64,000 nucleotides of DNA from Escherichia phage vB_EcoM_LNA2: the sequence record MZ311865.1. The stretch is one strand, 5' to 3'. Position numbers and translations under genes: made by a program. Position 1 is the first letter of the stretch, and each line of letters begins with the position of its first letter. Below the pieces are notes generated by a model that was not told the origin of the DNA, made no database searches, and saw only the letters and a list, made by a program, of their open reading frames with translations. Of this stretch, positions 3,529 to 45,024 are shown in pieces.

Positions 3529-3801
3529 TTAGTTGTTAGAATACATCGCTAAATGACGATAAATATTTTCAAAACCTTCATTGAATTCACTAATCAGTGT
3601 TTTCTTTTCTTCGGCAGTTAAATTTGTAATTAGTTTTCTGAACGAATTCTGATTTAGCTGCCGACCATCTTTTTTAATTCCAATCTCATTCAAGAATCCG
3701 ATGAAACTTGCTCGGTCTTCAACAATATCTTCCCTAGAGAATTTAATCAAAATAGAAGCAATAGTAATAATTTCACGTACGATTTCAATGTCTTTATTCA
3801 T
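3529..3801 (-). CDS. asiA: Anti-sigma70 AsiA
   Basis: 90 aa MNKDIEIVREIITIASILIKFSREDIVE... matches recalled T4 AsiA; convergent with t. Confidence 0.9.
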   Translation of the reverse strand: MNKDIEIVREIITIASILIKFSREDIVEDRASFIGFLNEIGIKKDGRQLNQNSFRKLITNLTAEEKKTLISEFNEGFENIYRHLAMYSNN

Positions 3802-5662: not shown

Positions 5663-6295
5663 TCACAGTACATTAGTTACAAGGGTAATGATTTCTTTGG
5701 ACACATTAGGGAAGTCAATGTAAGTATATTTACCACCGATCTTAATCTTAACATCATTTTCAAGAGAAGTAAACAGCTTTGATTCAGTTTCTGACATGTT
5801 GTATGCAAAGATTCTAAGAGCGCCATCTCGACGAATTTCAATTTGGCGAATGCCTAGAACTCGTTTAGCGAATCGAACTTCTAAGTTACTACGGTTTTCA
5901 CCAATTTCTTTAACTTCAACTTTATCTTTAATATTTTCAAAAACAAAGTTTGCTAATTCATGCATTTCAGGAGTAACTCCACGTGCTTTTCTAGTGTTAC
6001 GTTTCTGAAGAAGTTCTGGAGCATTTTCTTTGGCAAAGAGGTCTGCAGCTTTTTGGATAATATCCATTGCTTCGCCTGTTGCTACAAGTCCATCACCGGA
6101 TTTTTCGACTAAACCTTTCTTAATCAATACACCAATGTTAGAGTTAACAACTGATGCATTGTATTCCGCTTCCAGAGCTTCACGGACATTGGCAGCAGTG
6201 GTGAAGTTGTTCTTAATGATATAAACCATTATTGCAGCAGTTTTTTCATTCAGAGCGTTTTCAGAAGCTTTGATGATGTAAGTAACTTTAGACAT
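5663..6295 (-). CDS. motA: Middle-transcription activator MotA
   Basis: 210 aa, MSKVTYIIKAS...GVLIKKGLVEKSGDGL... matches recalled T4 MotA; early promoter upstream. Confidence 0.85.
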   Translation of the reverse strand: MSKVTYIIKASENALNEKTAAIMVYIIKNNFTTAANVREALEAEYNASVVNSNIGVLIKKGLVEKSGDGLVATGEAMDIIQKAADLFAKENAPELLQKRNTRKARGVTPEMHELANFVFENIKDKVEVKEIGENRSNLEVRFAKRVLGIRQIEIRRDGALRIFAYNMSETESKLFTSLENDVKIKIGGKYTYIDFPNVSKEIITLVTNVL

Positions 6296-23690: not shown

Positions 23691-23764
23691 TCCTTTTTCG
23701 TAAAATGCTTTAATTTTTTATGTGTTATAATGGTTCTGAGTTCCATCCGGTTATTCCAATCCAG

Positions 23765-24373
23765 TCAGTAACCGACAATAGACAGATTCCAGATTGTATA
23801 ACGTCCATCTTGAATAATAGAATCTACACGCAGTGTAGTCCCTATAGGGAGCATAAATTCACATTCGTCAGATATAAGCCTAGCATTAGACCGTCTTGTC
23901 GCTTCAGGGAAAGCTCCATTGAACTCACAAGATGGCGCAGCCAGAATCATGTTAAGCATATGTTCACGGAAGTTGAAAGCAAATGGCGCATCTTTGATGC
24001 AGAACATATTAAATGTTCCGTAAAAATTATACGAAGCAAAGTTACGTGCTACACCGAACACTGGGCTGAAGCTCATTACTCTGTCAAATTTAATAATACT
24101 ACCAATGCCTTTATCATCAAGTGTGGCCATAGTTTTCTTAGAGATTCCACGATACATTGTCTCAGGAACAGAAGATGTCCAATTTCTACGAACGATTGAA
24201 CTTAACTCCTGTTGAATACAGTCTGGCTTGTTTTCCATACACTGCCAAAGGATGCTTTGTTCATTATCGTTGAATTGACTATCAATTTCATACTGCAATT
24301 CATCTTGATATTCAGGGTTTTGAGCACGTCGAACCATTTCTTCAATTTCACACTCGTTATACGGCATAAACAT
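23765..24373 (-). CDS. modA: ADP-ribosyltransferase ModA-like
   Basis: 202 aa; YRG ... SFS ... ECEFM (R-S-E type ART motifs); paralog of next gene. Confidence 0.7.
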   Translation of the reverse strand: MFMPYNECEIEEMVRRAQNPEYQDELQYEIDSQFNDNEQSILWQCMENKPDCIQQELSSIVRRNWTSSVPETMYRGISKKTMATLDDKGIGSIIKFDRVMSFSPVFGVARNFASYNFYGTFNMFCIKDAPFAFNFREHMLNMILAAPSCEFNGAFPEATRRSNARLISDECEFMLPIGTTLRVDSIIQDGRYTIWNLSIVGY

Positions 24374-29432: not shown

Positions 29433-30083
29433 TTAACCTCGATTCATAAATGCATTAAATATTTGGTCATCAACAGAAATTTCTAATTCGACTTCAATTG
29501 TTTCAGCCTTTTCTTCAGGTGGTAATTCGTATCCACACACTACAATTTTTTCATCGATATCAAAATATACAGAAGCAATACGATTAATGTTACTTTCAGT
29601 TAAGTCTAAATCAACATCAACATCTTTTTGACCTACACTTAAAGGATAACTAATACGGGTTATTTTATTATCTTTAACAAAGAGTCCACCGACATACTCT
29701 GTACTACGTTTGAAGTTTACACGTTTCCGAAATGAAAGATATGATGCATCTTTACCGTGAGCTCGGCTCATAGGACATAATGAATAGCTAGAATAAGAGA
29801 TGTCAAATCCTACACCTTCAATATGAGCCAACGCGTCATGATTAAACCAATTATAATCATATGCCAAATCCATTATATTGTAATATGTGAAAGGCACCGG
29901 ATTAACATCATACGTTGTACCTTTAAAATCTGCCCAGGCAACGATTTCGTTATCTTTAACAATTACAAAAATTACACCAATATGGTATCCGTTATTATTT
30001 TCGTTAGGCGTTATATTATAACATTGTGCATTAGGAAATTTACCATATTTAAATGGCGCATTTTTGTGCATATAATAAATCAT
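29433..30083 (-). CDS. Hypothetical protein, ~216 aa
   Basis: ORF track 29433..30092 (GTG); ATG 30083. Confidence 0.5.
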   Translation of the reverse strand: MIYYMHKNAPFKYGKFPNAQCYNITPNENNNGYHIGVIFVIVKDNEIVAWADFKGTTYDVNPVPFTYYNIMDLAYDYNWFNHDALAHIEGVGFDISYSSYSLCPMSRAHGKDASYLSFRKRVNFKRSTEYVGGLFVKDNKITRISYPLSVGQKDVDVDLDLTESNINRIASVYFDIDEKIVVCGYELPPEEKAETIEVELEISVDDQIFNAFMNRG

Positions 30084-35171: not shown

Positions 35172-35270
35172 TGTATTTTTCCATAGGCATCATTATATTT
35201 TACTCATGTTTAAAAGATAAGACGATTATATAATAAGGGTTATACAGCATTTAAAACTTTAAACAGGCTC

Positions 35271-35819
35271 TTAACGAGCCCATTTGATAATTTCTGTAAT
35301 CAAATTATTACGTTCGCTTGCATTAAATCCTATAACTTTGTTAGCACCATCATGATTAAGTAATTGATACGTTTGGATTTCGTTATGAATTGCAAACTCT
35401 TCAAAATATGAAATGACTGTATTAAAACCAAATGAAGACAAAGTAATAAGGTCGTCTTCAAAACTTTCAGTCATTTCGTTACGTGTTAAAATAATTGTGA
35501 ACACATCATGGTTTTGGCAAAGACGAACATAGTCCTGTTCATAAACGTCAAGAACCGAGTCCGCATCTTGTCGAATACGTCCGTAAACCCAGTTACTAAT
35601 ATATCCACGGTCTAATAGATAAATCTTAGTAGGGTCTAAATAATTCAACATCGTTTCGAAACAGCCAACTTCATTTCGAGACTTAACATCGAAACGTCCA
35701 TCAACTGTTCGTTTAGGGAAATCAATCTTTACATATCTTTCACTAATTTCCATTATGTCATTAATGAAAGTTGTTTTACCAGCATTATCTGGGCCATCTA
35801 CTAAAATAATTTTAGCCAT
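35271..35819 (-). CDS. P-loop kinase (nucleotide/nucleoside kinase-like)
   Basis: 182 aa; Walker A VDGPDNAGKTT; LLDRGYIS resembles dNK-type motif. Confidence 0.6.
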   Translation of the reverse strand: MAKIILVDGPDNAGKTTFINDIMEISERYVKIDFPKRTVDGRFDVKSRNEVGCFETMLNYLDPTKIYLLDRGYISNWVYGRIRQDADSVLDVYEQDYVRLCQNHDVFTIILTRNEMTESFEDDLITLSSFGFNTVISYFEEFAIHNEIQTYQLLNHDGANKVIGFNASERNNLITEIIKWAR

Positions 35820-35820
35820 T

Positions 35821-36720
35821 TTATTCCTCGATTACGACATCTTCATATTTAGGTATATTATACGGTGAAGAAATTAAAGCGTTAAAGTAGATGAACTCAC
35901 CAAGACCTGGATGGAATACTTCTTCAGGATTTTCGAAATATTGAATTTTCGGACGTCCTTTAAGAATTTGATAGTACTCAGTTTTAGTTGGTTTAAAAAT
36001 TCGAATCAACGCTTCTTCAGGATACTTATTTCTGTCGAAGCTATTATTTGGATCGGTTATATAAAGCGGTTGACCTAATTGAATTGCGCATTCAACAACT
36101 TGTTCAAAACGATAGCATGGGTCACTAATTCGAAATGGATGAAAAATACCATCTAGATGAATAGGAGCCAAATCACCTACAAGACGCTGCATGATGGAAG
36201 GACGTATAACTTTCTGCGTTACGATAATCTTATTACCATCTGCACCAGCGTTAACCAGCACTTCTTTTTGACGTTCATTCAACACAGTAGTTTGAAGTGA
36301 ACGATTAACCGACAACATATCGGTTTTTAAGAATTCGTCAATATAAAAACGTGGTTTATTAGGGTCTGCAGTGATATTGAAATTGAATTCCGCATCAAAA
36401 GCGCCGTCATATCCAGTGATATCTGTGATTAGAAAATCACAGTCATAATAAGCAATTAATGAATCAACCACAAATTCATTTTCAGACCAGAAATATTTAC
36501 GAGTGTTATACGCGTTATCTTTATACCATAATGGAACAAACTTAAATTCTGGAAAAAGACGTTCGCATTCTTTAATATCAGATGCATTACGTGGATATGT
36601 AATCACATCACCCGGATTAGCACGGTGCAAATGAAGTTGGAAGTTGCCATCCTTAAGGATAGCATACTGTCCAGTTTCATAAGACCGCATACTCAAGATA
36701 GGTACGCGGAAAATAGCCAT
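35821..36720 (-). CDS. Hypothetical protein, 299 aa (occupies T4 beta-gt position)
   Basis: ORF track; no recognised motif; TAATG-coupled to TS-like gene. Confidence 0.5.
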   Translation of the reverse strand: MAIFRVPILSMRSYETGQYAILKDGNFQLHLHRANPGDVITYPRNASDIKECERLFPEFKFVPLWYKDNAYNTRKYFWSENEFVVDSLIAYYDCDFLITDITGYDGAFDAEFNFNITADPNKPRFYIDEFLKTDMLSVNRSLQTTVLNERQKEVLVNAGADGNKIIVTQKVIRPSIMQRLVGDLAPIHLDGIFHPFRISDPCYRFEQVVECAIQLGQPLYITDPNNSFDRNKYPEEALIRIFKPTKTEYYQILKGRPKIQYFENPEEVFHPGLGEFIYFNALISSPYNIPKYEDVVIEE

Positions 36721-37436
36721 TAGTCAAGGAATCCTTTAACATAATCAAAATCACGTTCAAACACATGGGCACTTACCATGGTATGAGTATAATCACCAAC
36801 TTCTACACCACATTCTTTAGCGATATAATGAAGTAATTTTCCTTGGAGATAAAAATCCAACTGCATAACAACAGCACAGTTCTGAGAACGCATATGACAG
36901 TGGGTATAAAGCTTACCATCACGAATATAATAAGTCACTGAGTCAGTACATGGATATTCAAGTGTTTCGTCCGAATCAAGCAAAGCCTGATCAGAACTTT
37001 CTAGAATTTGGAACACAACTCTTCGAGAGTTAGGCTTCTCTTTAAGTTCTTTTAGAAGAGCTGGTAATTGGGCCGCAATGCGAGGACCATAGAAAGTGTT
37101 GAAGTTCGCCGGCAAAACATCTGATTTTGGTTTAGAAATAAATTTAGCGACATTAGGATATGCCTTAAACGCTTCTTCTGCGTTGGTACCACCAGAAATC
37201 ATAAACTTCCAGAAGTCTTCGGCATATTCATAAGAGATGCGGTTAATACGTGGGTCGGTCATTTTGAATGATGATGGAGTGTCAACAACTACTGTCATAG
37301 ACCCAATTTCATTACAACGTCCAATACGAGAATCAGTTACGAATTCCGGGTTTTCTAAAATTTCACGATTGACAGCTTTAAATGCGGATTGAAAATCTGC
37401 GGCTTTAATATATTTCATTGTGTTATGTTTTCCCAT
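36720..37436 (-). CDS. Thymidylate-synthase-family pyrimidine hydroxymethylase-like enzyme (gene 42 position, divergent)
   Basis: 238 aa; NSRRVVFQ, YPCTDSVTYY and MRSQN resemble recalled T4 gp42 DSRRGIMIY, FMCTNTVQY, MRSND, but overall divergent. Confidence 0.65.
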   Translation of the reverse strand: MGKHNTMKYIKAADFQSAFKAVNREILENPEFVTDSRIGRCNEIGSMTVVVDTPSSFKMTDPRINRISYEYAEDFWKFMISGGTNAEEAFKAYPNVAKFISKPKSDVLPANFNTFYGPRIAAQLPALLKELKEKPNSRRVVFQILESSDQALLDSDETLEYPCTDSVTYYIRDGKLYTHCHMRSQNCAVVMQLDFYLQGKLLHYIAKECGVEVGDYTHTMVSAHVFERDFDYVKGFLD

Positions 37437-37714
37437 GTTTACCTCAATACAATTTATTATATACTCAATTCATAAAGCTTATTTGAATTTCTTAGCGATG
37501 TTGATATAACGTAAAGCTTCAGCATCGATATTTCCAAGAACACTATGAAGAAATGCATCAGCGTAGTATTACAGTTGAACAGGTTCTTTAATCACTTTAG
37601 CCGCTTTAGTTTCAAACAGGCCCATCAGGGCCTTTTTAAGAATTTGTTCGTTAGTGTTCAGTTTCGTAGTCAAAATCTCTTCATTAAGTTGGTGGTTAAA
37701 AGTTTTTCTAGAAA

Positions 37715-38875
37715 TCATTCCGGGTACCTCAAAGCGTCATCAGAGTTAGTTATATCAATAATAGATATAGAGTTTTCTGATAACCCATTTTTAGATAACT
37801 GACGTTTATAATATCTTTCACAATATGTACACGTTGACCCACAGATTTCATTAGCACAATCGAAATCTGGATGTCTGAACCACCTTTTTTCTAAAAAGCC
37901 ATCTAACAAAGAGGTTTCAATATTTACTGTATGTGAAAACTCAGTTTCGTTTTCAAGAGTGAAAATAGTCTCTAAAGGCTTCCACAGTTCTAACAAATTA
38001 CCTTCAAACTTTTCAGAAGCGTATGCTTCAAGAACTTTCAAAATGTAGTCTGTGCTACCTGTACGTCCTGAAACTTTGAATTGAGTGATACCAATATCAT
38101 TATAAAGTTTCAAATCTTGAGGACGAACAAAACGAGTTCTCAACCAGTTAAATGGGTCTGTATCACGAGCTTTAATACAGTGCTGCATAGGATATCCGTT
38201 TAAGGATTTAGCATCATCAGCTGTAACATCAGTACTATGGAAAATATAGCAAGAGTCACGATAGCTACAATGTGTTGTATACCCTTTACCAGCATTAGAA
38301 CAGAACTCATTTACAAGAACTTCAAATATTATATTGTTCTTATTACAAAACTCTGCTGCACGCTTCAGGAAAGAAACTGAACGGTTCTTATGAATTCCAC
38401 AGCAGACCTTTTTGATATTATATTGGTCGTGCAAGTATTTGATTTGAGTTACAGCATCGACATGTAGAATTGTTGAAACTTCAATCTCAATGTCTTTATT
38501 GACTTCACGAACAATTTCCATAACAACAGGGTTAGCGATAGTAATACGCCATACGCCTATTGACCAAAGATACTGAACATAATCCTGAATAGCTTTCTTC
38601 TTCCACTCAACTAGTTCTCTTTTTGAACCAGGATTTATCGTGTTGAGTGTATAGTTAAAGCAAATACCTAATTCGTTACAACGTTTAACGTAATCTTCTA
38701 ACATCTTTTTGTCAACGTCAGGAAGCCTAAAATCAGGTCTGGCTGCTACAAAAGCCATTTCTCTTGTAGAGCCGTATACTTCGTTTATCAAGCTATTAGG
38801 ATAAGTTTTATTGAGCTCTACGATTTTATCAAGAAGAGCTAAATCAAAATTCGTTCCGATTTTAAAAGTATTCAT
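37715..38875 (-). CDS. Hypothetical enzyme with C-terminal Cys cluster, 386 aa
   Basis: ORF track; DCANEICGSTCTYCE cluster; no confident family. Confidence 0.5.
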   Translation of the reverse strand: MNTFKIGTNFDLALLDKIVELNKTYPNSLINEVYGSTREMAFVAARPDFRLPDVDKKMLEDYVKRCNELGICFNYTLNTINPGSKRELVEWKKKAIQDYVQYLWSIGVWRITIANPVVMEIVREVNKDIEIEVSTILHVDAVTQIKYLHDQYNIKKVCCGIHKNRSVSFLKRAAEFCNKNNIIFEVLVNEFCSNAGKGYTTHCSYRDSCYIFHSTDVTADDAKSLNGYPMQHCIKARDTDPFNWLRTRFVRPQDLKLYNDIGITQFKVSGRTGSTDYILKVLEAYASEKFEGNLLELWKPLETIFTLENETEFSHTVNIETSLLDGFLEKRWFRHPDFDCANEICGSTCTYCERYYKRQLSKNGLSENSISIIDITNSDDALRYPE

Positions 38876-38933: not shown

Positions 38934-39335
38934 TTATAGATTCGGTTTATACGATTTAAATGTTTCGAATTCGCCTTTATTCATAAGAGCTTTGAATTCG
39001 TCAGGACGCATAGCTTTGTCGTCGATAATCCAATCATATACTGGTTTATGTGTTAGCAAATTATGGTACTTCAAGCCAATGTTTGCCAAGTTCTGAATCA
39101 GACTTGGGAGAATGTCAATTGCTATACGACCAGGACCTACTGACTTCATACCGCGAGCAGTGTAAAGCGTTATGGTATGCCCTGCATCATACAGAGCATT
39201 AATGGCAGACACCATTTCGGTGTCTGGTTTGAAGTTCACGTAATCACGATTGTTATTCCATTCCGTGATGCAATCATCGACATCAAAACAAAGATTAAGC
39301 ATGTTTTCTACACGGTGCATTAGATTCGTTCCCAT
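38934..39335 (-). CDS. HAD-superfamily phosphatase (KdsC/GmhB-like small phosphatase)
   Basis: 133 aa; motif I FDVDDCIT, motif II LYTAR, later K and IIDD. Confidence 0.6.
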   Translation of the reverse strand: MGTNLMHRVENMLNLCFDVDDCITEWNNNRDYVNFKPDTEMVSAINALYDAGHTITLYTARGMKSVGPGRIAIDILPSLIQNLANIGLKYHNLLTHKPVYDWIIDDKAMRPDEFKALMNKGEFETFKSYKPNL

Positions 39336-41005
39336 TGATGAGTGATATCGCCACCGATTGGACGATAGGAAACACCAGTTTCTTTATCAGTTAGTACCCA
39401 TTTACCAGGATTTTTTGTAATCAGAGTAGCCGTTACAGGTTCTGCTACGTCATAACTAATAGAGCCGTCTTGAAGTACACGGCCCATATTACGTAATTGC
39501 TTAGTCAGAAGTTCCATACCTTTATAATATGCGGCTACCGCTTTAAGTGGATTATTCTTGAAATAACCACCTAATGCAATCCAGATAATTGCTACAGCCA
39601 AATGATGATACTCGTTAAACGAACTCATCTTTCCATATTTGTAAACTAGTGGATTGATGTTAATAGTCACATTACAAGTTGTTTCGTCAATAGTAAACTG
39701 TCCCCAGGTCGGATTAGCGTTGAATTCATCATAACCTGAAACAGCATAAAGCACTTTAGCTTCATCGTACAATTTTGGCCCGTAAATCTTGGTTTCACCA
39801 AAATATCCACGAGGGTCGATAAACTTGACTTCGCCGTTATCAGTAATCATAGTATTACTGAAGTTCGGGTCGCCGTGAATAACAGAGTACTGTCCCTGAG
39901 AACGGTTATGATAACGAATAAGGTGTTCTAAAGCTTGTTTCAGCATTGGCTTCAGACGTCCAATCTTAGTGTAGTTCACATGTGTGATTTTACCAAATGA
40001 ATCAATCAATGGTTGAATGCTTTCACAACGATCAATAACTTTCGTATAGAATTCTTTAGTGAAATCACGACGAACAGTTTCAGGACTTACAAAATAAGTG
40101 TCTGTGCTGAATTTCAGTGCATCTAAAATTGCACCAACAATTTGTGGACGAGCAAGACTTGATTTGGATTTAATATATTCAAATGCCGGCTTACCTTTAA
40201 TGCGTTCCATTTCAAAGTTATTTTCATTAACAGAAACTAACTGAGGGACTGAATCTGATTTCACTTTAAGATACCATGAAATCTCATCTTTCTGAAGAGC
40301 TCGACCCTGTTCGGTTAATGCGAATTTAGTTACAGTTTCTTCACCAATTTCAACTGCATTAAAACTACGATTAAGTTCACGAACTTCATGAGCTTTTTCA
40401 AGTTTAGGCATATCACCTAAATCAATTAGATTCATAAGCTCTGATTTATTGAATGTGCTGCCGTAAAGGAATTCTACGAAATCACGTCCTTTGCAGTATT
40501 CATGAATTTCCTCATCAGTAGAACCCATATAGAATTCCCAGTCTTTGAACTGATAAATTCCTACAACATTACCACCTGTTGAACCTACGTTAGTGATATT
40601 TTCACCGTCGAAATTATATCGACATTCGTCACCCTTAACATAGATTGCGTTAACATTCCAAGACCATGAACCAAAATCGGGAATAATATCACACCAGTTA
40701 ACAATTACGTTATGGCCGTCTAAATCTTTGTGTAATTTAGCAAGAGCATAAGCAGAACCATACGCTTCATCAACTGTACGAATAGTCACATTGAACTCTT
40801 CTTGCTCACAATAAGCTCGAACAGTTTCAGCAAATTTTGAATGAACTACTACAATAATTTCATCTGCGCCAAGGTCAGAATAAATTGTATACAAATTGCT
40901 CAGAATAGTGTCTTGTTTATAGTTAACAAGCACCTTAGGAATATGATGCGTTATTGGATACAAACGAGTTGCTAATCCAGCACCAAGAATAACAGCTTTT
41001 TTCAT
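39320..41005 (-). CDS. Bifunctional sugar-1-phosphate nucleotidyltransferase / APH-type sugar kinase
   Basis: 561 aa; N-term KAVILGAGLATRL (G-x-G-T-R nucleotidyltransferase signature); C-term VIHGDPNFSNTMI...KFIDP (APH/choline-kinase catalytic motif). Confidence 0.65.
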   Translation of the reverse strand: MKKAVILGAGLATRLYPITHHIPKVLVNYKQDTILSNLYTIYSDLGADEIIVVVHSKFAETVRAYCEQEEFNVTIRTVDEAYGSAYALAKLHKDLDGHNVIVNWCDIIPDFGSWSWNVNAIYVKGDECRYNFDGENITNVGSTGGNVVGIYQFKDWEFYMGSTDEEIHEYCKGRDFVEFLYGSTFNKSELMNLIDLGDMPKLEKAHEVRELNRSFNAVEIGEETVTKFALTEQGRALQKDEISWYLKVKSDSVPQLVSVNENNFEMERIKGKPAFEYIKSKSSLARPQIVGAILDALKFSTDTYFVSPETVRRDFTKEFYTKVIDRCESIQPLIDSFGKITHVNYTKIGRLKPMLKQALEHLIRYHNRSQGQYSVIHGDPNFSNTMITDNGEVKFIDPRGYFGETKIYGPKLYDEAKVLYAVSGYDEFNANPTWGQFTIDETTCNVTININPLVYKYGKMSSFNEYHHLAVAIIWIALGGYFKNNPLKAVAAYYKGMELLTKQLRNMGRVLQDGSISYDVAEPVTATLITKNPGKWVLTDKETGVSYRPIGGDITHQWERI

Positions 41006-41033
41006 GTTGTGGTCCTCATTGGTAAGTAGGTGT

Positions 41034-41058
41034 ATTGTACACTATTCTAGTTAAAGCA
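41034..41058 (-). promoter_or_regulatory. Middle-promoter-like element (MotA box TGCTTTA, 12-nt spacer, TACAAT)
   Basis: Minus-strand AATGCTTTAA-N12-TACAAT about 30 nt upstream of the nucleotidyltransferase/kinase gene. Confidence 0.45.
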
Positions 41059-41190
41059 TTCATACTTTGCTTGTAGTCCAATCATAATCCATCCAATTAC
41101 AAGTGTTGGAATCATTACTGGAGCCGTTAAGCTCCAGTAGATAGTCATGGCAAGCATCAATAGTAAAAGTCCTATTGTTATTGCTTTCAT
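41047..41190 (-). CDS. Small hydrophobic protein, 47 aa (not in ORF track)
   Basis: Hand translation MKAITIGLLLLMLAMTIYWSLTAPVMIPTLVIGWIMIGLQAKYECFN; ATGA overlap with SIS gene. Confidence 0.35.
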   Translation of the reverse strand: MKAITIGLLLLMLAMTIYWSLTAPVMIPTLVIGWIMIGLQAKYECFN

Positions 41191-41822
41191 TGTTCGCCTC
41201 GTAACATGGCACCTAGTGCACCGCCTGGATGGAACTTAAGGAAGTCATTAGAGGTAAATCCACGTTCAGACGAAAGGTTGATAGCAAACGTATCGATAAG
41301 CGCTAACAACAATGTAGTGGACATAGTCGGAGCCAGAGAATTCTCATCAACCTCTACCGCGATGCCTGTACAGAAAGAGTAATCAAAAAGGGCTTCATTT
41401 TCTTGTGGAATGTCTGGGTTACAATGCAACAGAATCTGTTTGACGTTCGGTCGAATCATTTTAAGATGCTTAGCCACGCCTATCATTTCTTCAGTTTTAC
41501 CAGAACGACTAATATGAATCAACACATCATTAGGCGCAATGAATCCTGCATCACCGTGAGAATAATGCCCAGTGTTCAAGTACATACTCGGGATACCGAG
41601 TGAAGCAAATGTCTCAGAAGCTTTAGTTGCAATATTAGCATTCTTACCAACACCTGTAATAATTACTCGGCTTTCATAATTACTAAGTCCCGGGCGTCGA
41701 AGAGTTTCTAGAATAGCATTATAACGAGCAGGGTTTTGACTAATTACTTTGGCCATAGCGGCCAAAGAAGAAGCTTGTTTTATGATTGCGTCAATAGCGA
41801 TAGTAATAGGAGTAGTTTTCAT
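41187..41822 (-). CDS. SIS-domain sugar-phosphate isomerase, KdsD/GutQ arabinose-5-phosphate isomerase-like (no CBS domains)
   Basis: 211 aa; GVGKN...TFASLGIPS...HGD.G...ISRSGKTEE...LAPTMSTT...FHPGGALG parallels E. coli KdsD SIS domain as I recall it. Confidence 0.65.
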   Translation of the reverse strand: MKTTPITIAIDAIIKQASSLAAMAKVISQNPARYNAILETLRRPGLSNYESRVIITGVGKNANIATKASETFASLGIPSMYLNTGHYSHGDAGFIAPNDVLIHISRSGKTEEMIGVAKHLKMIRPNVKQILLHCNPDIPQENEALFDYSFCTGIAVEVDENSLAPTMSTTLLLALIDTFAINLSSERGFTSNDFLKFHPGGALGAMLRGEQ

Positions 41823-41862
41823 ATTTCTCTCATTTAATTAGTTTACCGTCCATGGCATTATA

Positions 41863-44574
41863 TCAAAAATCGAACATATCGAACAGAGATGCTTTCTTCT
41901 CGTAATCGAGTTTCGCTGCTGATGTGAATCCTTCAAGTGGTTTAATAAATGTCTTCTCAAGGAGAACAGTGTAGTCCATCCAATGAAGTACATCGTCTTT
42001 AATTAAATCTGTGATTTCAGTACCAGAAGGCCATGCGATACATTTATCACCGAATGGGTTTCCTTCACGTAAAGGCAGAACATATACTTTTTCACCTTCT
42101 ACAACTTGTGGTGCATCGATATTACCTTTGATAGCCCGGTTATACGTCAGAATTCCACGAATATGGAACGGGCATTTAGGACCAGGGAATCCACCGACGT
42201 CATATTTAGCAATGTTATTCGCAGAAGATACCGACGCGATGCTAATATAATTCAATTGACGGAATTCTTTTTCAAACTCTTTAAAATATTCTTGTAATGA
42301 TTCTTCACCTTCTTGAAGCATACGACGAATACATTCTTTAAGAGCTTTCTGTACTGCTTTAGGAGTCGAAGATTTCTGAGTCTCTAGACCCATGATTTTG
42401 AGTTTAGGCTCAGCGTAACGAGTACCTTCCATATCCCACACGTTTAATGCATAACGTTTCTTACCAGTCCAAAATCCGCCAATACCTTTAGAACCGAGTG
42501 GAGGCCCAGCGATAGCTTCTCGGTCCATGAACATTAAGTGTTGTTTATTGTTCATGTATTCACACATTTCACGGAAACCTCTATCAATAGCAGGTTCCAT
42601 ACGTTCATGTGCAAACTTATCTAAGAAGTCTACCCAATGGTTGGTATCACGGAATTTAGATTCACCAACCTTATCAATAATTTTATCTGCAGATACGTAA
42701 ATGGAGTCTGTATCACCATATAGAACGAAAGCTTCACCTTCTGTACCACAAACTTCATTCAGATATTCATTAACTTTACGTTCAATCCACTGTAAAGCCA
42801 TTTGCCCGAATGTTGTGATTGCAGTAGCATTACGCAAATCATAATAACGGAACCAAACGTTTCCAAGTGCACCATAAAGCGAGTTGATGAGCAATTTACG
42901 GTTAATCTGTGCAGTCATACCTGCAACTTCAGTACGTTGAGCTCTAAACAACATTTCATTAAGAGATTTAGCAGACAACTTTTTAATCTTTTCTTTAATC
43001 TCGTCAGTGAAGTCGAAACGATAATCAACATCTAATGGTTCGTCAACAGAAAGATTAGGATTATGCAATGCCTCTTTAATTATTTCACCATTACGTTGAG
43101 CTGCAAGCATGTAACCTTTATGTTCTTTACGTTGATTAAAGACCTTAGTGATTTCAGTTGGAACTACACCATCACGGTCTTTATAATACATCATGCCGTT
43201 AGGAGAACAACTGTACACATCAGAAGGACGTTCAGCAACAGCGTTAATATAATCATGCAATGGAGCTACTTTAAACGTTCCTGCTATTGTTTCTGGGCTA
43301 ATATTCACTTGGCGAATGATGCTTGGATACAGAGATGTAAGGTCGAAACTCATTACATATTTGTATCGATTTGGAATAGGTTCCTTAACAAAAGCGCCAG
43401 GATAAGGTTGAACCGGGTGAGAACGACCTTGTGGAATCACCTTGTTCTGCTCTTTAAGGCTATTAAAAATAATAGCATCCCATGTTTTAATTGGACTAAA
43501 CACAGATTGAATCTGTATCTTAGCATAATAACCCATGTCCAAACTCAAGTTGATGAACTGACGCTTAGCATCAATTTGCAATACACGATACACGTCGATA
43601 ATGTTATAAGAAATATATCGTTGGTGATTGCTTTCACGAAGCTTAGAAATAGGGCCGTCATATTTCAGTTTACCAACGTTCAATTCAAATTCTGAAATGT
43701 AATCCAGAGAATACGACGGTTGATTGGTAAAAGAGAATTTTTTGTAAAGGTCAATGTAATCAAGAACAGAGATACCGAACAATGTAATGATTTCACGAGA
43801 ACCATACATGTTTTCGATAACTTTAACACGAGTTTTACGATGTGGTGATAAACGTTTCGCAGTAGATTCGCCAAAAATATTCTTGATTCGGTTATACACA
43901 TATGGAATATCAAATGACTCAACGTTCCATCCAGTCAAAATGACAGGAGTTTTCTGTTGCCAGAAGTTGAGATATTCCATCAACAATTCTTTTTCGTTAT
44001 CGAACGGCATATAAATGATTTTATCGATAATTTCAGATGGAACTTCATCACCACCTTGTTCTTGAAGTTTAGCAGCGATTTCAATAGACCATTCTTCTAC
44101 ATTACCGTATGGAGAATTCAATAGATCAAATACGTAGAACCTGTCGTCAATTGAGTCATAATGGGTGATAGCATCAATCGGATGTTTTGCTTGTGACGGC
44201 TCAGGGAACCCATCTGGAGATGTTACTTCGATGTCGAAGTTAGCCACACGAATTTTTGTATGGTCGTATTTGATTTCATAGTTATAAGTGTCAGACAAAT
44301 ACGCCAATTTGAAATCGTCCATGCCAAGTGCTTCAAGTCCGATATCTTCCATGCGTTTAATCCATTGGGAGGCATCACGCATATTAGCGAACAACTTACG
44401 AGTACACGGCTTACCGTAGATATCGAAATATTTCGTAGCCTGACTTTCCGGACAATGAGCAAACAGTGATGGTTTATATTCTACTTCACGAGTACGTTCA
44501 CGGCCATTAGAATCGATGTAACGTTCAAAAATTGAATCACCAATCTGTTCAACCGTTAAGTAAAATTCTTTCAT
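41863..44574 (-). CDS. 43: DNA polymerase gp43 (family B)
   Basis: 903 aa; exo motifs FDIE; pol motifs DxxSLYPS and YGDTDS. Confidence 0.95.
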   Translation of the reverse strand: MKEFYLTVEQIGDSIFERYIDSNGRERTREVEYKPSLFAHCPESQATKYFDIYGKPCTRKLFANMRDASQWIKRMEDIGLEALGMDDFKLAYLSDTYNYEIKYDHTKIRVANFDIEVTSPDGFPEPSQAKHPIDAITHYDSIDDRFYVFDLLNSPYGNVEEWSIEIAAKLQEQGGDEVPSEIIDKIIYMPFDNEKELLMEYLNFWQQKTPVILTGWNVESFDIPYVYNRIKNIFGESTAKRLSPHRKTRVKVIENMYGSREIITLFGISVLDYIDLYKKFSFTNQPSYSLDYISEFELNVGKLKYDGPISKLRESNHQRYISYNIIDVYRVLQIDAKRQFINLSLDMGYYAKIQIQSVFSPIKTWDAIIFNSLKEQNKVIPQGRSHPVQPYPGAFVKEPIPNRYKYVMSFDLTSLYPSIIRQVNISPETIAGTFKVAPLHDYINAVAERPSDVYSCSPNGMMYYKDRDGVVPTEITKVFNQRKEHKGYMLAAQRNGEIIKEALHNPNLSVDEPLDVDYRFDFTDEIKEKIKKLSAKSLNEMLFRAQRTEVAGMTAQINRKLLINSLYGALGNVWFRYYDLRNATAITTFGQMALQWIERKVNEYLNEVCGTEGEAFVLYGDTDSIYVSADKIIDKVGESKFRDTNHWVDFLDKFAHERMEPAIDRGFREMCEYMNNKQHLMFMDREAIAGPPLGSKGIGGFWTGKKRYALNVWDMEGTRYAEPKLKIMGLETQKSSTPKAVQKALKECIRRMLQEGEESLQEYFKEFEKEFRQLNYISIASVSSANNIAKYDVGGFPGPKCPFHIRGILTYNRAIKGNIDAPQVVEGEKVYVLPLREGNPFGDKCIAWPSGTEITDLIKDDVLHWMDYTVLLEKTFIKPLEGFTSAAKLDYEKKASLFDMFDF

Positions 44575-44586
44575 TTAATTTCCTTT

Positions 44587-44602
44587 AGACGAGTTATTGT
44601 CT
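44587..44602 (-). promoter_or_regulatory. Gene 43 translational operator hairpin (loop AAUAACUC)
   Basis: mRNA AGAC-AAUAACUC-GUCU just 5' of the gene 43 SD; loop matches the T4 gp43 operator loop as I recall it. Confidence 0.55.
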
Positions 44603-44635
44603 TTTGTTTGTTGATGAACTTATTATACTCCAAAT

Positions 44636-44649
44636 GGGACCGAAGTCCC
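44636..44649 (-). terminator. UUCG-tetraloop hairpin after regA (terminator or stabilising element)
   Basis: GGGAC-UUCG-GUCCC 6 nt after regA stop; weak U-tract. Confidence 0.4.
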
Positions 44650-44655
44650 ATTGCT

Positions 44656-45024
44656 TTAATTACCAATTGTATATTTTGCTTTCAAAGTCCAGTCATCTTT
44701 CTGTTTAAAAGAGATGACACGGAAGTTATTAGTCAGGCCAAACAGATCTTCACGAGCAGAGTCTTCAATAACAATCAAGCCCCAGTCTTCAAGCAACTGA
44801 GCAATCGAATCACGTCGCTGATAGTCTTCACCATCAATATCAACCTGCCGTCCATCCATACGCAACATTTCTTTAAAGTGGACGATGTAGTATTTACCTT
44901 GCTTTTGGAGGATATGACAGGACTGATAAAGGACTTTATCCTTGTTATTAGCGATGCCCATACGGGTCAGAGTCTCTTTGACTTTCAGAAAATCTTCGGG
45001 GTTCTTCAATTTAATTTCGATCAT
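44656..45024 (-). CDS. regA: Translational repressor RegA
   Basis: ORF track 44656..45033; from MIEIKLKNPEDFLKVKETLTRMGIANNKDKVLYQSCHILQK... matches recalled T4 RegA. Confidence 0.85.
   Translation of the reverse strand: MIEIKLKNPEDFLKVKETLTRMGIANNKDKVLYQSCHILQKQGKYYIVHFKEMLRMDGRQVDIDGEDYQRRDSIAQLLEDWGLIVIEDSAREDLFGLTNNFRVISFKQKDDWTLKAKYTIGN

Follow-up and report, generated by a model that had tools for sequence, protein, structure and literature searches.

A 64,000-nt stretch of DNA from Escherichia phage vB_EcoM_LNA2 (MZ311865.1; hereafter, the window) carries on its minus strand, at positions 41034-41060, what looks like a genuine T4-type middle promoter ahead of the gene for an arabinose-activating enzyme. 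In our reading, the site is likely a MotA- and AsiA-dependent promoter that would start transcription near 41027 and serve the kinase/nucleotidyltransferase gene and then the phosphatase gene. The preliminary description of this DNA had called it a MotA-box middle promoter, and this assignment was supported at the sequence level by a consensus box, the spacing, a -10 hexamer with five of six consensus bases, the lack of a usable -35, the presence of motA and asiA in the window, enrichment of the motif, its conservation, and an independent published prediction of the same site in phage RB69 (Pm:29842).

Such a promoter would wire the genes for arabinose activation and 5-hydroxycytosine of RB69-like phages into the standard T4 middle-mode programme, to which T4's own glucosyltransferase and hydroxymethylase genes belong. 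It would be one ordinary example of a well-known class of promoters, as a specialist would expect, and carries little weight beyond annotation. For probing RB69-type MotA on arabinosylated DNA, it also offers a predicted start and a synonymous point mutation (TGC to TGT).

Genomic setting

Judging by identity and gene order, the window is from an RB69-like Mosigvirus. The 3.5-kb stretch around the site was 98.7% identical to Escherichia phage RB69 and matched more than 150 other Mosigvirus genomes at 95-99%. Genes on the minus strand followed the RB69 order: gene 43, the isomerase gene (ORF055c), a small ORF (ORF054c), the nucleotidyltransferase/kinase gene (ORF053c and ORF052c), ORF051c to ORF045c, and uvsX. 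RB69 gp45-gp55 produce arabinosylated 5-hydroxycytosine, with gp52:53 as an AfhE-like kinase/pyrophosphorylase (PMC13326640; PMC6024577); promoters are mentioned in neither paper.

The first gene served by the predicted promoter (39320-41005, minus strand; RB69 ORF053_52c, AfhE-like) encodes a 561-aa protein with a Pfam NTP_transferase domain at the N-terminus and weak kinase-family matches at the C-terminus. By analogy to AfhE (PMC13326640), it was assigned as a putative arabinose-5-phosphate kinase and NDP-arabinose pyrophosphorylase. The RB69 counterpart is a single 561-residue ORF (PMC6024577). Next on this strand is a HAD-like phosphatase gene (38934-39335; RB69 gp51, AfhF-like), placed by synteny with RB69 and with a function proposed in PMC13326640; a Pfam search of its product gave no match. 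It is followed by genes for a U32-peptidase-like protein (37715-38875; RB69 gp50; Pfam Peptidase_U32, E 7e-11), a ThyA-like 5-hydroxy-dCMP synthase (36720-37436; RB69 gp48; Pfam Thymidylat_synt), whose activity was demonstrated for RB69 gp48 (PMC13326640), a glycosyl (arabinosyl) transferase (35821-36720; RB69 gp46:47; one ORF, with the assignment taken from PMC13326640), and a nucleotide kinase-like protein (35271-35819; RB69 gp45). On the other side of the site, the gene at 41187-41822 (minus strand; RB69 gp55; Pfam SIS) corresponds to arabinose-5-phosphate isomerase, a function reported in PMC13326640.

Both the ORF at 39320-41005 and that at 35821-36720 are unbroken in the window, with 561 and 299 aa, respectively. 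The RB69 GenBank record divides them into ORF053c/052c and ORF047c/046c, and the unbroken forms fit published corrections of RB69 sequencing errors.

Predicted promoter elements and leader

Read on the minus strand, the site runs GTATG-AATGCTTTA (41060-41052)-ACTAGAATAGTG-TACAAT (41039-41034)-ACACCTACTTACCAAT-GAGGA (41017-41013)-CCACAAC-ATG (41005). In T4 middle promoters, the consensus box (a/t)(a/t)(a/t)TGCTT(t/c)A is centred near -30 (Hinton 2010 review). The box AATGCTTTA (41052-41060) agrees at every position with the 9-mer (a/t)(a/t)TGCTT(t/c)A; with one more upstream base, GAATGCTTTA (41061-41052), the third upstream position is G and not A/T. A sigma-70 type -10 hexamer, TACAAT (41034-41039), lies 12 bp downstream of the box and agrees with TATAAT at five of six positions, with C at the third; the mapped T4 promoter PnrdG likewise has TACAAT as its -10 hexamer. 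The preliminary description had placed a box-N12-TACAAT motif on the minus strand at 41034-41058, a range that covers TGCTTTA-N12-TACAAT exactly. Its position held, and its notation needed correction, as the box had been written one base too long: by T4 convention, the box ends in TTTA and the spacer is 12 bp. The distance of about 30 nt to the nucleotidyltransferase/kinase gene was also confirmed, with the -10 ending 28 nt ahead of the ATG (41005) of the 561-aa gene.

Transcription is predicted to start at the A at 41027 (41026-41028) according to the T4 rule that +1 lies six to seven nt past the -10. When this rule was checked on T4 P42, the mapped start (26320) was found 7 nt past its TATAAT. 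The predicted start would give a 22-nt leader that includes a Shine-Dalgarno sequence, GAGGA (41013-41017), located 7 nt ahead of the ATG; the sequence ATGAGGA is kept in relatives. The leader was predicted to be unstructured (-0.5 kcal/mol).

Of the candidate -35 hexamers, TGAATG (17-bp spacing) shares only 2/6 positions with TTGACA, and ATGAAT (18-bp spacing) only 3/6. A TGn extended -10 was sought at TACAAT and not found, and a generic sigma-70 scan called no minus-strand site here. Because the best -35 reaches only 2-3/6 and TGn is lacking, sigma-70 should use the site poorly when unaided. We rejected an early promoter at this position, given no -35 match, no TGn and an empty stretch, RB69 20971-42465, in the early-promoter list of Nolan et al. 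(supplements of PMC1524935). A late promoter (TATAAATA) was likewise rejected, as none was present in the sequence around the site. The site is on the same strand as every neighbouring early or middle gene.

Enrichment of middle promoter motifs

We scored the window with a matrix covering the box, the spacer and the -10, which was built from 28 experimentally mapped T4 middle promoters. Start sites were taken from Table 1 of the Hinton 2010 review (30 promoters); PsegA and P43 failed to align automatically and were left out. The site scored 14.6 bits, of which box plus spacer contributed 10.05 and the -10 region 4.56. In a leave-one-out test, the T4 promoters themselves had a median of 16.3 and a lower quartile of 11.4, and the site outscored 12 of the 28. 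Its weak half is the -10 region (4.6 of 14.6 bits); middle promoters require an excellent -10 (Hinton 2010 review).

Scores equal to or above that of the site were found at 27 minus-strand and three plus-strand sites in the window, versus 1.0-1.5 per strand in shuffled sequences. An ORF started 0-80 nt downstream in 14 of the 27 minus-strand sites (13% by chance), and the false-positive rate at this score was estimated at about 5-11% on the minus strand. A simple pattern search gave a similar result: TGCTTYA-N11-13-TANNNT occurred 11 times versus 1.67 expected, and the full 9-mer consensus gave eight pattern matches at seven distinct sites (a plus-strand site was counted at two spacings) versus 0.86 expected. 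Five of these seven sites were on the minus strand, and in three of the five the predicted +1 was located 16-22 nt ahead of a large gene, namely gene 39, the 561-aa gene and gene 47. The site thus ranks midway within a class that is strongly enriched, biased to one strand and located ahead of genes.

The top matrix match in the whole window (25.1 bits), AAAATGCTTTAATTTTTTATGTGTTATAAT at 23704-23731 (plus strand), falls between srd and modA. It is directed antisense into modA, corresponds to Pm:12081(+) of Nolan et al., and stands back-to-back with Pe:12088, a predicted early promoter; a middle-time antisense transcript against modA could arise from it. Another good match, AGTGCTTTA-N13-TATGAT (39728-39755, minus strand; 19.2 bits), lies within the nucleotidyltransferase/kinase ORF. 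The GenBank record of phage SA79RD marks only the counterpart of this internal site, whose context is weaker, as a T4-like middle promoter and omits the one at 41034-41060, which suggests that promoter annotation of current Mosigvirus records is incomplete.

MotA, AsiA and the proposed mechanism

Both middle-mode regulators are encoded on the minus strand of the window. The motA gene (5663-6295; Pfam MotA_activ, E 1e-38; MotCF, E 2e-8) encodes a protein with a full-length match to chain M (T4 MotA) of the sigma-appropriation complex 6K4Y (E 9e-51), and asiA (3529-3801; Pfam AsiA, E 2e-32) is syntenic with RB69 asiA. The window resembles in these respects the best-studied T4 case, PuvsX (complex 6K4Y), in which the MotA box is located near -30, the sigma-70 -10 lies 12 ± 1 bp downstream, and recognisable MotA and AsiA are supplied by the phage. 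It differs from the T4 system in that RB69-type MotA is only about 51% identical to T4 MotA, with a DNA-binding domain far more diverged than the activation domain. Because of this divergence, we infer a box specificity identical to that of T4 MotA solely from the enrichment of the motif. In addition, DNA of these phages contains arabinosylated 5-hydroxycytosine and not glucosyl-hmC, and a modified C in the box would therefore be chemically different from that of T4 (PMC13326640).

If the mechanism is that set out for sigma appropriation by AsiA and MotA in T4 (Hinton 2010 review), AsiA would bind region 4 of host sigma-70 after infection, and the -35 hexamer would no longer be read. MotA would bind the far C-terminus of sigma-70 together with the box AATGCTTTA, centred near -30, and sigma region 2 would read TACAAT, such that RNA would begin at about 41027. 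The mRNA would have a short unstructured leader (22 nt) with GAGGA as the ribosome-binding site, and its first product would be the bifunctional arabinose kinase/nucleotidyltransferase, followed by the phosphatase. Initiation of this kind would be added on top of read-through from upstream, within a 21-kb block of replication genes that has no predicted RB69 early promoters.

Previous prediction in RB69

This site is already known. Nolan et al. 2006 (Virol J 3:30, PMC1524935) ran an HMM of the T4 middle consensus on RB69, and their Additional file 4 contains 32 sites, including Pm:29842 (RB69 29802-29842, minus strand, score 17.7). The RB69 sequence read at 29802-29842 on the minus strand (...TATGAATGCTTTAACTAGAATAGTGTACAATACACC...) is the same site, which has thus been catalogued since 2006 as a predicted RB69 middle promoter. 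The two sequences are identical over the box, the spacer and the -10, and differ in a few bases near the ribosome-binding site (GAGGACCACAAC vs GAGGATCTTCAAC). In that work Pm:29842 is an HMM hit in a supplement, listed without discussion or experiment. Our search of the literature on RB69 or any Mosigvirus turned up neither mapped 5' ends nor RNA-seq or in vitro transcription data, and the early genes in one candidate study had been inferred from homology to T4 only. The terminators predicted by Nolan et al. in this region are limited to those at genes 45/44 (RB69 35357-35372) and ORF045c/uvsX (RB69 24042-24056).

Conservation and dual coding

Conservation was assessed in an alignment of 13 phages over the 138 nt preceding the orthologous gene, and by inspecting 29 further IMG/VR loci. 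The site occurs in 152 Mosigvirus records. The arrangement TGCTT(T/C)A-N12-TACAAT, with invariant spacing, was present in five genera, including Mosigvirus, Winklervirus (X20, Kc304), Kanagawavirus (CIP9) and Tegunavirus (fHe-Yen9-01). Among the box-bearing genera, identity of the adjacent protein is just 66-73%, and the remaining intergenic bases vary. In the aligned set, TACAAT was identical in seven Tevenvirinae sequences and a Klebsiella phage, and TAnnAT located 25-35 nt ahead of the ATG was invariant (13/13 phages). A canonical GCTT box at the T4 spacing was absent from the JS98 group, several Acinetobacter phages, and Providencia and Proteus phages; some relatives without a GCTT box have a TGn extended -10 instead.

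The box of the window also encodes protein. A conserved hydrophobic ORF of 47 aa (RB69ORF054c; 41047-41190, minus strand) has the MotA box in its 3' end, where the box overlaps the last codons GAA TGC TTT AAC TAG (Cys-Phe-Asn-stop). Since the box is coding sequence, its conservation is partly explained by the protein. In Klebsiella phages of the Marfavirus type, the small ORF is absent, and cGCTTTA-N12-TACAAT is located ahead of the same gene, after a strong terminator hairpin directly past gene 43; the arrangement therefore also occurs in fully non-coding DNA.

The Cys codon within the box was TGC in all 12 distinct sequences that had TACAAT 12 bp downstream, and TGT in T4, JS98 and IMG/VR locus L031, three lineages with no -10 at that spacing. 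TGC accounts for 23% of Cys codons in the long ORFs of the window, and in another locus (L022) an extra Cys codon right after the box is TGT. This pattern suggests that the G-C of the box is itself under selection, with the limit that the TGC/TGT contrast rests on few independent events because the box-bearing lineages may share the box by descent.

The small hydrophobic ORF, of 47-49 aa (MK...MIPT...GW...QAKYEC(F/I)N and a stop), is common to RB69-like phages, Winkler-, Kanagawa-, Teguna- and Dhakaviruses, and T4, and matches no Pfam family. Its T4 homologue (locus L004, 5229-5375, minus strand) is located between imm and gene 42, is unannotated in the T4 RefSeq record, and holds the mapped promoter P42. 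Together with PsegA and P-alpha-gt, P42 belongs to the mapped T4 middle promoters ahead of DNA-modification genes (Hinton 2010 review). Like the window site, P42 is of the MotA type and lies in the homologous small ORF, downstream of gene 43 and directly ahead of cytosine-modification genes. However, within the small ORF, P42 (TGCTTTT-N12-TATAAT) occupies Leu-Leu-Leu codons close to the 5' end. The window lacks a box at that point; its box lies about 95 nt downstream, in the 3' end of the ORF, and the T4 sequence at this second position is TGTATCA, with no -10. P42 also drives dCMP hydroxymethylase directly, whereas in the window the sugar-activation genes stand between the promoter and the ThyA-like gene. 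Nucleotide orthology with P42 was rejected, given the different location of the box within the homologous ORF, and the two sites are positional counterparts heading DNA-modification genes.

An evolutionary reading of these data, to which we give about even odds, is that a micro-ORF heading the cytosine-modification operon keeps a middle promoter inside it or at its end across T-even-like phages of differing DNA chemistry, and that the promoter has moved from the 5' Leu codons (P42 in T4) to the terminal Cys-Phe-Asn codons in RB69-like phages and Winkler-, Kanagawa- and Tegunaviruses, forcing use of the rare TGC codon. If true, this shift would be a clean case in nature of promoter turnover in a sequence constrained by both coding and regulation.

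Alternative explanations

One alternative is that the site has no promoter activity: TGCTTTA could simply encode the C-terminal Cys-Phe-Asn of the small ORF, and TACAAT could be an intergenic hexamer that is there by chance or otherwise constrained, in which case the genes would be transcribed only by read-through from promoters that lie ahead of gene 43, gene 45 or the isomerase gene. This explanation agrees with the box being coding sequence, with the absence of a terminator or significant hairpin between the site and the upstream genes, and with the partial origin of T4 middle transcripts from extension of upstream ones. However, TACAAT and the exact 12-bp spacing are kept in non-coding DNA while nearby intergenic bases vary, the rare TGC codon co-occurs with the -10, the same layout is found in a non-coding context in a Klebsiella phage, and the false-positive rate at the score of the site is estimated at about 5-11% (see above); we regard a complete lack of activity as unlikely. 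It is quite improbable, too, that the promoter is real but independent of MotA, that is, a weak sigma-70 promoter active from the start of infection or constitutively. The window site has no TGn and at most 2-3/6 matches at any -35 position, AsiA would inhibit -35-dependent use anyway, the box and its distance from the -10 are exactly those that the phage's own activator uses, and the search of Nolan et al. predicted no early promoter in RB69 20971-42465; these points stand against the retention of TAnnAT even in relatives that have no GCTT at -30, among them the JS98 group and several Acinetobacter, Providencia and Proteus phages, some of which have a TGn extended -10.

A further explanation is that the conserved block works not as a DNA promoter but as RNA on read-through transcripts, for example in processing, stability or as a translational operator. 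Short inverted repeats do overlap the -10 in many relatives, and in Acinetobacter phages the -10 is in the loop of long hairpins. The repeats, however, occur at non-homologous positions between genera, the fold of the window sequence is no better than that of shuffled sequences (z +0.9) with a stem of just 5 bp, and an Rfam search of 40500-41500 returned nothing at E ≤ 1, which makes a role of this kind very improbable. An RNA hairpin or terminator overlapping the site was rejected on the same z value, strong hairpins being confined to Acinetobacter and Klebsiella relatives. A MotA-dependent middle promoter remained our preferred interpretation of the site.

Several Acinetobacter T4-like phages (L026, L027, L041 and L028, about 1150-1185) have the -10 ahead of the same gene in the loop of a 10-14-bp inverted repeat (z -2.1 to -3.5), and in Klebsiella phages (L012/L033, about 1420-1450) a 13-bp terminator hairpin (z -4.7) abuts the GCTTTA box. 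Compact terminator-promoter junctions of this type were absent from the window.

Probable transcription unit and read-through

A transcript from the predicted start would cover the kinase/nucleotidyltransferase gene and then the phosphatase gene. It would probably run on through the U32-like, 5-hydroxy-dCMP synthase, arabinosyltransferase and nucleotide kinase genes, about 5.8 kb in all, to a terminator-like hairpin (GGCTC-GTTAA-GAGCC with a T-rich tail; 35253-35280, minus strand), which corresponds to the RB69 TransTerm prediction 24042-24056 (Nolan 2006 supplement) and is the probable end of the transcription unit. The isomerase gene (41187-41822) would not be served because it is located upstream of the promoter. 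Thus, the proposal that the promoter drives the sugar-activation genes held for the kinase/nucleotidyltransferase and phosphatase genes downstream and not for the isomerase, the first gene of the pathway.

Three further middle promoters were predicted in the cluster, each with one box mismatch: TAAGCTTTA-N11-TATAAT at 37456-37481, ahead of the ThyA-like gene (Pm:26264 of Nolan et al.); an internal site at 35857-35883, ahead of the gp45-like gene (Pm:24665); and one at 35225-35251 (Pm:24034).

We detected neither a terminator nor significant RNA structure upstream of the site. Because no terminator precedes it, read-through from upstream should also supply these genes; in T4, middle genes are made partly by extension of upstream transcripts (Hinton 2010 review). 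Since read-through contributes, timing is unlikely to depend on the promoter at 41034-41060 alone. We therefore conclude that the promoter would boost middle-time expression atop read-through and would not be a sole switch. The suggestion that middle-mode expression would time the pathway gained support from the sequence data as far as the mode is concerned, and was weakened where timing was ascribed to this promoter by itself.

The isomerase gene has its own candidate element, a TGATATAAT extended -10 (41861-41869, minus strand) that overlaps the stop codon of gene 43, sits about 39 nt ahead of the isomerase ATG, and is not accompanied by a MotA box. This element may serve the first gene of the sugar pathway as a separate promoter resistant to AsiA. 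Further upstream, ahead of gene 43, a hairpin, AATGGGACTTCGGTCCCATT, is followed by GGAGTATAAT (44600-44680, minus strand); the position of this hairpin resembles the known gp43 translational operator/promoter region of T4 and RB69.
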